In this document: piece by piece, positions 54,657 through 56,357 of the stretch | How the letters are laid out: every line of letters begins with the position of its first letter | Position numbering within the stretch: position 1 is the first letter of the stretch | Assembly (NCBI RefSeq): GCF_013167455.1 | Contig: NZ_CP038328.1 | DNA from: Escherichia coli O157:H7 | GTDB taxonomy: Bacteria; Pseudomonadota; Gammaproteobacteria; Enterobacterales; Enterobacteriaceae | Length of the DNA stretch: 64,000 bases | Reading direction: 5' to 3' (one strand) | Notes under the pieces: model-generated | Database searches by the model: none | The model's input: the letters and a program-made list of their open reading frames with translations, nothing else | What the model was told of the DNA's origin: nothing | Translations under genes and position numbers: made by a program

Positions 54657-54680
54657 GCTATCAGTTTGTAAGTCAGAAAG

Positions 54681-54707
54681 CCGCCGACATGTTCGGCGGT
54701 TTTTTTT
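54681..54707 (+). terminator. Intrinsic terminator of the nuo operon
   Basis: ccgccga-catgt-tcggcgg followed by T8, 25 bp after the nuoN stop. Confidence 0.85.
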
Positions 54708-54722
54708 GGTGCCCTGACACCA

Positions 54723-55226
54723 TCACCCAACAATAACCGTCAGCGCATGATTCCCTTGTCGCAGCATACGTCGATACGCGCTAATCAGCTTTTCCATATC
54801 AAGCATGATCGAAGCAAAGAGTTGCCCCTCTAACTCTTCTGAAAAGGTCACTCCCGGATAAATCTCCATTTCATTGAGTCGCTTAATGGAAAACTTTTTA
54901 CGCAGCTCACTTCGATCCAGTGATTCCAGTCGGTCGATTGTCGCGGCTAACTCCTGATTCCATGTCAATCCCAGGAAACCATCTATACCATCTTCGAGGC
55001 TGTGTTCACCAAGCACGGCACGACTCAGCGGATCATTCTTCGCTGGATCGAACGCAGAGGTGCCTGTCAGCCCAAAGTGTAAAAAATCCCAGCGTTTATC
55101 AATATCCAGTCGGCGTAATCCTGAAAGCGTGTCATGTATATTATCCATCAAAGGTTTTTCAGTAGACTCAAGCAGTTGGTTAATCTTTTCTGAGTCAATT
55201 TCTGCAAAATAACCAATCATTCCCAT
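54723..55226 (-). CDS. yfbM: YfbM-like protein (DUF1877 family), 167 aa
   Basis: Intact 167-aa ORF; length and orientation fit yfbM, but the name is from recall and not verified by alignment. Confidence 0.65.
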   Translation of the reverse strand: MGMIGYFAEIDSEKINQLLESTEKPLMDNIHDTLSGLRRLDIDKRWDFLHFGLTGTSAFDPAKNDPLSRAVLGEHSLEDGIDGFLGLTWNQELAATIDRLESLDRSELRKKFSIKRLNEMEIYPGVTFSEELEGQLFASIMLDMEKLISAYRRMLRQGNHALTVIVG

Positions 55227-55328
55227 TTATTTTTCCTCCATTGAATTTTATGTTTCGCATCTTAAAACAGACGAGGGAAAATAAAATGTACATGTCGCTG
55301 TTTCTGGACCCGCCTCGAGAAATTTTTA

Positions 55329-55969
55329 TTATTTACTGTTGTGTAACAAAGTTATAACACCATCCACCATCTGAGCCATTTTCTGATAATTCAATCTGTC
55401 TGCTGTATCACCGGGCAAGTGGTATTGTTTATTACGATAAAAAGCGGTGTCAGTAATCATTACGGCGAGAATATCGTGTTGCCAATAATTAAGGTGGTCA
55501 GAGAAATCAATACCGTGAATAAACCATGGGGCATTCATAGAATAAACAGATAAATCCCGGGATGATAACAATGCCGTTTTTACCTGACGAACGGCGTTGA
55601 TATCCTGTATTCTGCCGACCAGGCAATAAAGTCCCCCCGATCGGGATAAAGCCAGGACATTGCGGGTAAGGGTAATCCTGGCTACCAGGCGCAGAGTCGT
55701 AATAGCCAATTGGGGACGCCCTGCGCGGTAACTCTGGCACCGCTACTGACAAAGACCTTTTTTTATATACTCTACGGACCTATTCAGATTATCAATATTG
55801 TCGGCATTACGTGGATGCACAGTTTGTGTAAGATAACGAACTGTTTTTTCTAATTGCTCAGGAATTACGTGTCGGGGCGTTGGCGATAATGCAGTGACCC
55901 AGGGTTGGTAAAAAATAATCAGAGGGAGTGAAAACAGAAATAATATAACAAAAGGAAAATTTTTTTCAT
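55329..55969 (-). pseudogene. yfbL: Degenerate yfbL-like M28-family peptidase gene (frameshifted, internally shortened)
   Basis: Signal-peptide start MKKIFLLLYYFCFHSL at 55969 hits a stop after 16 codons; the sequence continues in another frame (IIFYQPWVTALSPTPRHV..), then a 126-aa C-terminal frame with M28-like SDH...YH..DT motif. Confidence 0.7.
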
Positions 55970-56307
55970 ATGTAAATTATCAATAAAAGACGTTATTTTA
56001 TCATTATTTATAATGAGTTATGAGTGTTTGTTTTATTACGGTTGTTAGATCTATACAAAAAGTATCTTTTACAGTGGCTTCGCTATTTTAAAAAGGAATT
56101 CATATAAGGAAAAATATAATTATGTTATTTATTGGCAGATTGAGTTGACAGGGGGCAGAAATCTGAGGGTAAGAAAAGTCAGCAACAACAATCCACTACA
56201 TCAACAGACCAGCAATCGCGTGCCGAGATACGCTGGAAATACCCGAAGATTGAACTGGCGGGTGGTGTGACTGACATCAGTCAGTGATGACTTTTTAGCA
56301 AACTATG

Positions 56308-56341
56308 TTCGACCAGTCAGCATATTTGCTGACTGGTCGAA
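56308..56341. other. Perfect 15-bp-stem hairpin immediately downstream of elaD
   Basis: ttcgaccagtcagca-tatt-tgctgactggtcgaa, 17 nt beyond the elaD stop; no strong U-tract. Confidence 0.6.
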
Positions 56342-56357
56342 TTAATTAACAATGATG

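Follow-up and report, generated by a model that had tools for sequence, protein, structure and literature searches.

Does the short stretch of DNA between nuoN and elaD of Escherichia coli O157:H7 represent the reduced remainder of a larger gene block, or is it the K-12 arrangement that stands apart? In K-12, the genes yfbP, yfbO, yfbN, yfbM, yfbL and yfbK lie from nuoN to elaD, and the original prediction, which gave this six-gene map correctly, took the O157 locus for an indel hotspot shaped by lineage-specific gene loss. In the window analysed here, a stretch of 64,000 nucleotides of O157:H7 DNA, the stop codon of nuoN is located at 54656 and that of elaD, encoded on the minus strand, at 56358, leaving 1,701 bp between the two genes, which matches the gap of about 1.7 kb that had been estimated between the nuo terminator and elaD. 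We found that positions 54657-56357 contain an intact yfbM, a dead yfbL and a gutted yfbK.

Contents of the nuoN-elaD interval

Features of the interval and its right boundary, with positions in the window and strand in brackets (a dot where no strand applies):

54675..54707 (+), intrinsic terminator of nuoN, a G+C-rich hairpin followed by a T8 run
54705..54721 (.), 17-bp spacer TTTGGTGCCCTGACACC, unoccupied site, filled in K-12 by the 2,561-bp yfbP-yfbO-yfbN block
54723..55226 (-), yfbM, intact, 167 amino acids (DUF1877 / YfbM family), uninterrupted ORF
55329..55969 (-), yfbL pseudogene (M28 metallopeptidase) with a 326-bp deletion and frame-breaking indels
55970..56103 (.), divergent yfbL/yfbK intergenic (promoter) region, deeply diverged allele
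56104..56227 (+), yfbK piece 1, codons 1-44, from haplotype alignment
56228..56248 (+), yfbK piece 2, a 21-bp island of codons 486-492 (IRWKYPQ) between two deletions
56249..56287 (+), yfbK piece 3, codons 564-575 and the stop codon, from tblastn and alignment
56307..56342 (.), perfect 15/16-bp hairpin between the convergent yfbK and elaD
56358..57581 (-), elaD, intact, 407 amino acids, ElaD/SseL-family deubiquitinase, 35% G+C, right boundary of the interval

The nuoN terminator folds with -18.6 kcal/mol (z=-3.9), and every sampled E. coli haplotype as well as two further Escherichia species retain its hairpin; in BL21(DE3), ISEcB1 is inserted within the loop of this hairpin. At the other end, the hairpin between yfbK and elaD, which K-12 has too, yielded folds of -29.1 and -27.3 kcal/mol (z about -9 to -10) and is probably a bidirectional terminator. 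The product of elaD scored 423.2 bits against the NCBIfam model NF008812 (cut-off 250) and shares 87.7% amino acid identity with K-12 ElaD. The 167-amino-acid ORF, proposed to be yfbM-like, proved to be yfbM itself: it is 98.8% identical to K-12 YfbM over 167/167 amino acids, Pfam DUF1877 (PF08974) covers residues 1-163 of the 167 (E=1.4e-35) and PDB entry 1RYL ('yfbM') was matched over 167/167 residues with E=1.5e-107. In six comparisons, among them those with K-12, 25DN, E. whittamii and E. albertii, dN/dS of yfbM was 0.04-0.07; the gene is maintained by strong purifying selection.

The neighbouring yfbL had been described as a frameshifted M28-peptidase remnant, and this description holds. 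Tblastn located YfbL residues 6-72, 71-87, 197-226 and 222-323 in three different frames within 55332-55958 on the minus strand, and the fragments are 80-94% identical, the correct-frame match for residues 197-225 reaching only 59%. The 326-bp deletion, at 55710/55711, removes K-12 residues 88-196, i.e. the N-terminal half of the M28 domain, which according to Pfam comprises residues 95-317 of intact YfbL, and a C-to-T change private to O157 sits exactly at its junction. Four further frameshifts are positioned near 55621 (-1), 55662 (-1), 55758 (+1) and 55958 (-4), and an ORF of 126 amino acids is left at 55329-55709. No uninterrupted ORF with the whole Peptidase_M28 domain exists, and yfbL hence fails as a gene for a functional M28 metallopeptidase. 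In an identical O157 genome, RefSeq likewise lists 55329-55946 as a 'frameshifted' metallopeptidase pseudogene. The dN/dS of the yfbL remnants was 0.55-2.0, compared with 0.29-0.37 between intact alleles.

Most of yfbK had been reported as absent, and indeed tblastn in the 64-kb window matched only its last 12 codons. In piece 1 the start codon ATG is changed to ATA, and there are a 4-nt deletion and a 5-nt deletion removing the lipobox cysteine codon, while the 21-bp island is flanked by two deletions, one of 1,325 bp and the other of 212 bp. The vWF_A, VWA and YfbK_C domains span residues 102-568 of intact YfbK; with these domains, the start codon and the lipobox cysteine destroyed, yfbK fails as a functional gene for the vWA-domain lipoprotein.

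The original prediction also noted about 600 bp of AT-rich DNA devoid of an ORF of at least 60 amino acids, and in 55753-56357 (605 bp, 35.5% G+C vs 52.1% for the whole window) the longest ORF has 47. A foreign insert was considered and rejected, since this DNA aligns column by column to every other haplotype, namely to their yfbL 5' end, intergenic region and yfbK 5' end. The yfbL/yfbK intergenic region is about 69% identical to the K-12 allele, counting the aligning part only. No intact unknown cassette was found in the ORF list, by Rfam or by repeat search, as had been anticipated. Rfam in evalue mode over 54300-57900 gave nothing near gathering scores, the PADLOC search for anti-phage defence gave no match for YfbM or for K-12 YfbK/L/N/O/P, and promoter and terminator scans, repeat search and Rfam on the interval returned nothing except the terminator hairpins (8 promoter-like sites vs 5.0±2.7 expected). 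The interval holds no IS-like ORF, no repeat of at least 14 nt coincides with any breakpoint and the sequence shared at the deletion junctions does not exceed about 4 nt. The scar of a mobile element or genomic island was rejected as the cause of the deletions, as neither an IS remnant nor a long repeat is found at the breakpoints. IS elements are present at the same locus in BL21, TUM17668 and CUPF12.

Distribution of the layouts and ancestry of the genes

Population counts were obtained from BLAST coverage and evenly spaced samples and are approximate. Among 5,426 complete E. coli genomes, a collection with many laboratory K-12 and outbreak O157 isolates whose percentages are not natural population frequencies, the full compact layout was found at 95% identity or more in 2,079, and roughly 35-39% have the deletion breakpoints of the window. 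The carriers are unrelated and include BL21(DE3), O145:H28 and isolates from chicken and pig. About 3,300 of the genomes have the 326-bp yfbL segment and about 2,100 lack it, the yfbK body is present in 2,513 and both yfbK deletions, with identical junctions, in 2,512. Carriers of the yfbL deletion were counted through the 326-bp segment and through identity bands of the whole interval. A 54-bp query across the yfbL junction was unusable for this count because the junction C-to-T change stops megablast seeding in other carriers (308 complete genomes, of O157/O55 type, were 100% identical to it), and a 100-bp query over-counts by merging the halves of intact yfbL into one place. The compact layout is the most common state, a plurality that comes close to the majority of E. 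coli at which the original prediction would have counted as refuted, and only a minority has the K-12 order. The further claim that this is the only place of the window with lineage-specific content stands for gene content in comparison with K-12 and falls for the deletions, which are shared by about 2,000-2,500 genomes. At least nine architectures were seen at the nuoN-elaD locus, in keeping with an indel hotspot. Elsewhere, the window also departs from K-12 in two smaller ways, by having two additional 91-bp repeat units at about 13.4-13.7 kb and a different nuoL-nuoM spacer in place of the K-12 one at 51436-51659.

Tblastn with YfbN, YfbO and YfbP gave no match anywhere in the 64-kb window. 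The 17-bp nuoN-yfbM spacer is missing from K-12 and conserved in E. whittamii, SCPM-O-B-8794, 25DN and 07_3986, and the empty junction together with its spacer is identical in all sampled E. coli without the yfbPON islet. A direct nuoN-yfbM junction occurs in 4,212 of the 5,426 complete genomes (78%), and the yfbPON block in 946-1,015 (17-19%). Since two other Escherichia species and 78% of the genomes share the direct junction, yfbPON appears to have been gained by the K-12 lineage, a minority one, as a 2.56-kb insertion just past the nuoN terminator; the loss of yfbN/O/P from O157, as originally put forward, is not supported. In Escherichia sp. MOD1-EC7003, yfbN adjoins yfbM (93.5% amino acid and about 92% nucleotide identity). 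A recent acquisition by K-12 alone therefore does not account for the islet, whose history may include transfer or an old polymorphism. Searches of PADLOC, NCBIfam and Pfam with K-12 YfbN/O/P yielded weak TPR matches for YfbP only.

A scan with YfbM provided only four outgroup loci, all from Escherichia outside E. coli proper and none from E. fergusonii; one of them is cut 1.1 kb beyond yfbM. The order rbn-yfbK-yfbL-yfbM-nuoN, with neither elaD nor yfbPON, was found in E. whittamii, in SCPM-O-B-8794 and, up to the contig end right after yfbM, in E. albertii. E. albertii has both yfbK and yfbL, and at least one of the two is present in E. whittamii and in two further Escherichia lineages. Judged by this distribution, yfbK and yfbL are ancestral and their remnants in O157 represent real decay. 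The proposed reductive evolution is thus retained as true decay of these two ancestral genes and abandoned as regards yfbN/O/P and lineage-specificity. Furthermore, 25DN, HH45 and each of the four other Escherichia lineages lack elaD. At this same locus, elaD is known to be polymorphic, for it occurs in O157 and in strains of groups A, B1, E and D but is missing from B2 (Catic et al. 2007, PMC1847702; Wang et al. 2025, PMC12575377), and the absence from B2 agrees with the elaD-less architectures seen here; yfbK, yfbL and the flanking genes are nowhere mentioned in the latter paper.

Order of the lesions and competing explanations

Strain HH45 keeps the yfbK body and already has the 5-nt lipobox deletion, FCI48 combines the yfbK deletions with an intact yfbL, and O145:H28, EF7-18-58 and BL21 share the 326-bp deletion at the same junction together with one of the 1-nt deletions, their other indels being different. 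These states place the small yfbK lesions before the yfbK deletions and the latter before the yfbL deletion. Starting from an ancestral Escherichia three-gene block between the nuo terminator and rbn, with yfbK on one strand and yfbL-yfbM on the other, E. coli except the elaD-less lineages would have gained the low-G+C elaD beside yfbK. In one haplotype, yfbK was disabled first by small lesions (start codon, 5-nt deletion of the lipobox cysteine) and then gutted by the 1,325-bp and 212-bp deletions; on this yfbK-deleted background, yfbL lost 326 bp and later gained the 1-4-nt frameshifts, and yfbM remained intact under strong purifying selection. The yfbPON genes would never have belonged to the compact haplotype, which would be old and have become widespread via descent or homologous recombination, the contribution of O157:H7 being limited to private point changes. 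The structure and the order of events can be read from the haplotypes, whereas the driver is what we infer, most likely relaxed selection on a dispensable yfbK/yfbL pair. As the best overall explanation, this combination of an ancestral block, elaD gain, stepwise yfbK/yfbL decay, yfbPON never present and relaxed selection has a high probability.

That the frameshifts and deletions are sequencing or assembly errors of a single genome is hardly credible, for although homopolymer runs such as the A/T run at 55960-55968 are error-prone in general, nothing else speaks for an artefact; the identical junction in 308 independent complete genomes excludes an assembly error, hundreds more genomes share the deletions and RefSeq independently marked yfbL as a pseudogene. 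Very improbable, too, is an ancestry of all six K-12 genes with lineage-specific reduction in O157, which would have removed yfbN/O/P together with the greater part of yfbK and some of yfbL. The presence of all six in K-12 and of yfbN beside yfbM in MOD1-EC7003 would fit such a history, but the unoccupied 17-bp site is the same in E. whittamii, SCPM-O-B-8794 and islet-less E. coli, the junction is common to 78% of the genomes, the window bears no YfbN/O/P trace, and the deletions belong to about 2,000-2,500 genomes of many lineages.

Another driver of the same decay might be selection for loss, if YfbL, perhaps with YfbK, were a phage host factor or otherwise costly, so that its inactivation was repeatedly favoured and the compact haplotype became common through protection and not through mere dispensability. 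According to a 2025 preprint, Keio deletions of yfbL and of yfbO each render K-12 resistant to phage N4, and complementation from a plasmid makes the cells sensitive again. Moreover, yfbL was disabled independently by the 326-bp deletion, a frameshift in HH45, an internal stop in 377323_2f and a deletion of residues 52-287 in E. whittamii, and yfbK was lost independently in SCPM-O-B-8794, in CUPF12 through an IS1 insertion and in 377323_2f through a larger deletion. However, the phenotype comes from a single preprint on just one laboratory strain, in which these mutants did not resist nine further phages, and intact yfbL alleles are already weakly constrained (dN/dS about 0.3), which alone predicts frequent neutral loss. 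We regard selected loss as unlikely. Slightly more doubtful still is the specific proposal that the nuoN-elaD interval is a natural phage-susceptibility locus, in which yfbL (and in K-12 yfbO) would be needed by N4-like phages and phage predation, in place of neutral decay, would have driven the repeated independent yfbL/yfbK inactivations in E. coli and other Escherichia species, the allele of the window among them; if true, a very common 'pseudogene' allele would be a resistance determinant and could help explain the narrow host range of N4. Relaxed selection remains the preferred driver.

Relation to known strain differences and significance

The K-12 elaD-nuoN interval shares with the window the flanks (nuoN terminator, elaD, rbn) and an orthologous yfbM, and the yfbL/yfbK remnants align to it base by base. 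Compared with K-12, the window is without 2,561 bp of yfbPON (by our reading never present), 326 bp of yfbL and 1,325 + 212 bp of yfbK, and its yfbL-yfbK intergenic region and yfbK 5' end form a deeply diverged allele of 69-81% identity. Such differences between K-12 and O157 have been on record ever since their genomes were first compared. Perna and colleagues and Hayashi and colleagues, both in 2001, reportedly named such strain-specific segments 'K-islands' or 'K-loops', K-12 segments absent from O157 at collinear positions, and the yfbPON and yfbK/yfbL segments are of the same kind. Unlike in the K-island comparisons, the present analysis assigns a direction to the changes, a probable gain for yfbPON and loss for yfbK/L. 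A full-text literature search found no paper on the structure of the nuoN-elaD interval.

As a structural hotspot the locus is real but ordinary, and its yfbM, yfbL pseudogene and elaD are already annotated by RefSeq. As in ordinary pseudogene decay, small lesions are followed by progressive deletion, here in the series HH45, FCI48, O145/BL21 and O157, and the remnants show a dN/dS near 1; the only point that stands out is the age and spread of the dead allele. The discovery value is small, and the use of the analysis lies first in the corrected direction: K-12, which seems to have gained yfbPON, is the unusual genome, and the compact form of O157 is the commonest. In addition, the interval offers a clean stepwise example of pseudogene decay beside a strongly conserved neighbour. 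Given the N4 preprint, the recurrent loss could be selected, and should the N4 phenotype of yfbL and yfbO knockouts be borne out, the natural alleles described here would be ready test material.

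The nuoN-elaD interval and its gene remnants

As the original prediction described, the interval between nuoN and elaD (54657-56357) is compact and contains an intact yfbM, a broken yfbL and about 600 bp of AT-rich DNA without an ORF of at least 60 aa (55753-56357; G+C content 35.5% versus 52.1% for the window), in which Rfam, a repeat search and PADLOC returned nothing as a hidden element.

Features of the nuoN-elaD interval (position, strand, description)
54656: end of nuoN
~54675-54707: nuoN terminator, G+C-rich hairpin with T8 tail (-18.6 kcal/mol, z=-3.9)
54705-54721: 17-bp spacer from base-level alignment, followed by the yfbM stop codon
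54723-55226, minus: yfbM, intact, 167 aa, 98.8% identity to K-12 YfbM
55329-55969, minus: yfbL remains, upstream of yfbM
55970-56103: divergent yfbL/yfbK intergenic region
56104-56287, plus: yfbK remains
56307-56342: perfect hairpin ahead of the elaD stop codon
56358-57581, minus: elaD, intact, 407 aa (NCBIfam NF008812, 423 bits, cut-off 250)

Many E. coli O157:H7 chromosomes match the 2.3 kb around the finding at 100% identity, and a 54-bp probe over one deletion junction was identical in 308 complete genomes, among the matches listed only O157:H7, O55:H7 or unserotyped entries; an assembly artefact was therefore rejected. YfbM matches PDB 1RYL and, end to end, Pfam DUF1877. The YfbL pieces are spread over three frames, with five frame-breaking changes relative to intact alleles (-1 nt near 55621, -1 near 55662, -326 bp at 55710|55711, +1 near 55758 and -4 near 55958). 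The 326-bp deletion took out aa 88-196 and with them the N-terminal half of Peptidase_M28, a domain at aa 95-317 in intact YfbL. yfbK survives as codons 1-44, a 21-bp island (codons 486-492) and the last 12 codons. In the first piece ATA replaces the ATG start codon, 4 nt have been deleted, and a separate 5-nt deletion has taken out the lipobox cysteine codon. None of the three YfbK Pfam domains (aa 102-568) is left.

Comparison with K-12 and frequency of the layouts

A K-12 derivative showed the order nuoN, yfbP, yfbO, yfbN, yfbM, yfbL, yfbK, elaD, rbn, with the six genes that the original prediction listed for the elaD-nuoN interval of K-12. In base-level alignment K-12 differs from the window by 2,561 bp (the yfbPON islet) in place of the 17-bp spacer, and by retaining 326 bp of yfbL, 1,325 bp of yfbK and another 212 bp of yfbK. 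Outside this interval, K-12 and the 64-kb window are collinear save for 91-bp repeats at ~13.4-13.7 kb and the nuoL-nuoM spacer. The repeats are four tandem REP-type units in the dedD-cvpA spacer (13350-13709), with two fewer in K-12 at the same site and three Rfam naRNA4 (RF02564) matches over the gathering score. The nuoL-nuoM spacer (51436-51659) measures 224 bp versus 157 bp in K-12 and gave no megablast alignment with it, so it is a small replaced or rearranged segment within the nuo operon. In addition, the Rfam nuoG RNA motif (RF01748) was found at 44422-44464 (50.3 bits, gathering score 33).

States of the locus in 5,426 complete E. coli genomes and architectures in 40 evenly spaced records; the collection is biased and the shares do not stand for natural populations
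yfbPON block present: 946-1,015/5,426 (985 at an identity of at least 99%)
Direct nuoN-yfbM junction: 4,212/5,426
yfbK body present: 2,513/5,426
yfbK deletion junction as in the window: 2,512/5,426
326-bp yfbL segment present: about 3,300/5,426
Whole interval matched at an identity of at least 95%: 2,079/5,426 (compact layout among the matches listed)
Layout of the window (compact): about 38% of 40 records
yfbL intact, yfbK deleted: about 10%
yfbK, yfbL and elaD without the islet: about 12%
K-12 layout: about 15%
yfbK and yfbL annotated, elaD match absent: about 18%
Other architectures: remainder

Therefore, within this collection the window's layout is the commonest and the K-12 layout a minority, and the interval, an ordinary and already annotated feature, does not hold the lineage-specific content proposed for it. 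The 167-aa ORF is indeed YfbM; the compact layout is not that of K-12 and falls short of most E. coli in the sample.

Direction and order of the changes

One genome per species was scanned, which gave four Escherichia loci beyond E. coli proper: E. albertii (rbn-yfbK-yfbL-yfbM), E. whittamii (yfbK, yfbL cut down to aa 1-51 and 288-323, yfbM, nuoN), SCPM-O-B-8794 (two ends of yfbK, then yfbL, yfbM, nuoN) and MOD1-EC7003 (yfbK, yfbL, yfbM, then yfbN at 93.5% aa identity). yfbK and yfbL are ancestral at the locus, and what the window lacks of them reflects real decay. elaD, found in none of the four loci, was acquired within E. coli, in agreement with its published distribution (PMC12575377), in which 66.6% of 530 strains carry it and B2 does not. 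In elaD-less genomes (elaD cassette at window 56262-57768 versus L008, L005 and L009, extracted comparison loci) the YfbK C-terminus (...LAKDLDNSQN) and the spacer to rbn differ, so the elaD insertion brought its own hairpin terminator and replaced roughly the last eight yfbK codons. ElaD of the window shares only 87.7% aa identity with that of K-12.

The nuoN-yfbM junction with the 17-bp spacer, which K-12 lacks, is kept in E. whittamii, SCPM-O-B-8794 and every islet-free E. coli haplotype, and because independent precise deletions would not recreate a spacer common to species, yfbPON is an insertion into an ancestrally unoccupied site. Thus the reductive reading of the original prediction holds for the decay of yfbK and yfbL and for the lack of a new system, but not for yfbN, yfbO and yfbP, which were not lost here. 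In MOD1-EC7003 the yfbN homologue (L009 10505-11602) lies beside yfbM with a spacer of 724 bp versus 272 bp in K-12, and E. coli PapRG-06-5 has DNA of 87% identity to part of this region at a site far off on its chromosome, annotated as "SMI1/KNR4 family protein". This hints at a possible kinship of yfbN/O/P-type islets with immunity-gene clusters, which Pfam and PADLOC did not support for K-12 YfbN/O/P.

Among E. coli haplotypes, HH45 keeps the yfbK body with the 5-nt lipobox deletion already present (a pseudogene in RefSeq), FCI48 has both yfbK deletions and an intact yfbL, and O145:H28, EF7-18-58 and BL21(DE3) additionally carry the 326-bp yfbL deletion with the same junction (CCAATC|GGGG), at which O157 has a private C-to-T change. 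Decay thus ran from an HH45-like lipobox lesion through the yfbK deletions to the 326-bp deletion and then to small yfbL frameshifts, some shared and some private. This is the usual path, with small inactivating lesions first and deletional erosion after. yfbM is maintained (dN/dS 0.04-0.07 in comparisons reaching E. albertii) and yfbL is dead (0.55-2.0 for in-frame pieces of the remnant); even live yfbL is weakly constrained (0.29-0.37 between intact alleles).

Structural variability and possible drivers of loss

The claim of an indel hotspot was borne out by six sampled states and three further architectures. In BL21(DE3) (L017 1290-2740) ISEcB1 interrupts the nuoN terminator hairpin within its loop; TUM17668 (L015 9290-11180), with the same left junction, has lost yfbM through elaD between ISEcB1 and IS1; 377323_2f combines an internal yfbL stop with a deletion running from yfbK into elaD. 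IS1 and IS200/IS605 insertions were also found at the locus. The yfbL-yfbK intergenic region occurs as two alleles at about 69% identity, diverging more than flanking genes do between Escherichia species, a sign of either old polymorphism or recombinational import. The divergence extends to the yfbK 5' end (69-81% identity, window 55970-56227 versus L002, L003 and L008). Parts of the FCI48 allele here resemble the non-coli SCPM-O-B-8794 sequence, suggesting recombination between species.

Relaxed selection on dispensable genes is the default reading of the loss. K-12 Keio deletions of yfbL and yfbO were recently reported to confer resistance to phage N4, with sensitivity restored on complementation and no effect on nine other phages (2025 preprint, doi 10.1101/2025.09.29.679331). 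Yet yfbL or yfbK has been inactivated independently in E. whittamii, HH45, 377323_2f and the common allele; taken with these events, the phenotype is compatible with selection for loss as an alternative to relaxed selection, but is no demonstration of it. The genome of the window is naturally without the functions of yfbL and yfbO, both linked to N4 sensitivity in K-12.
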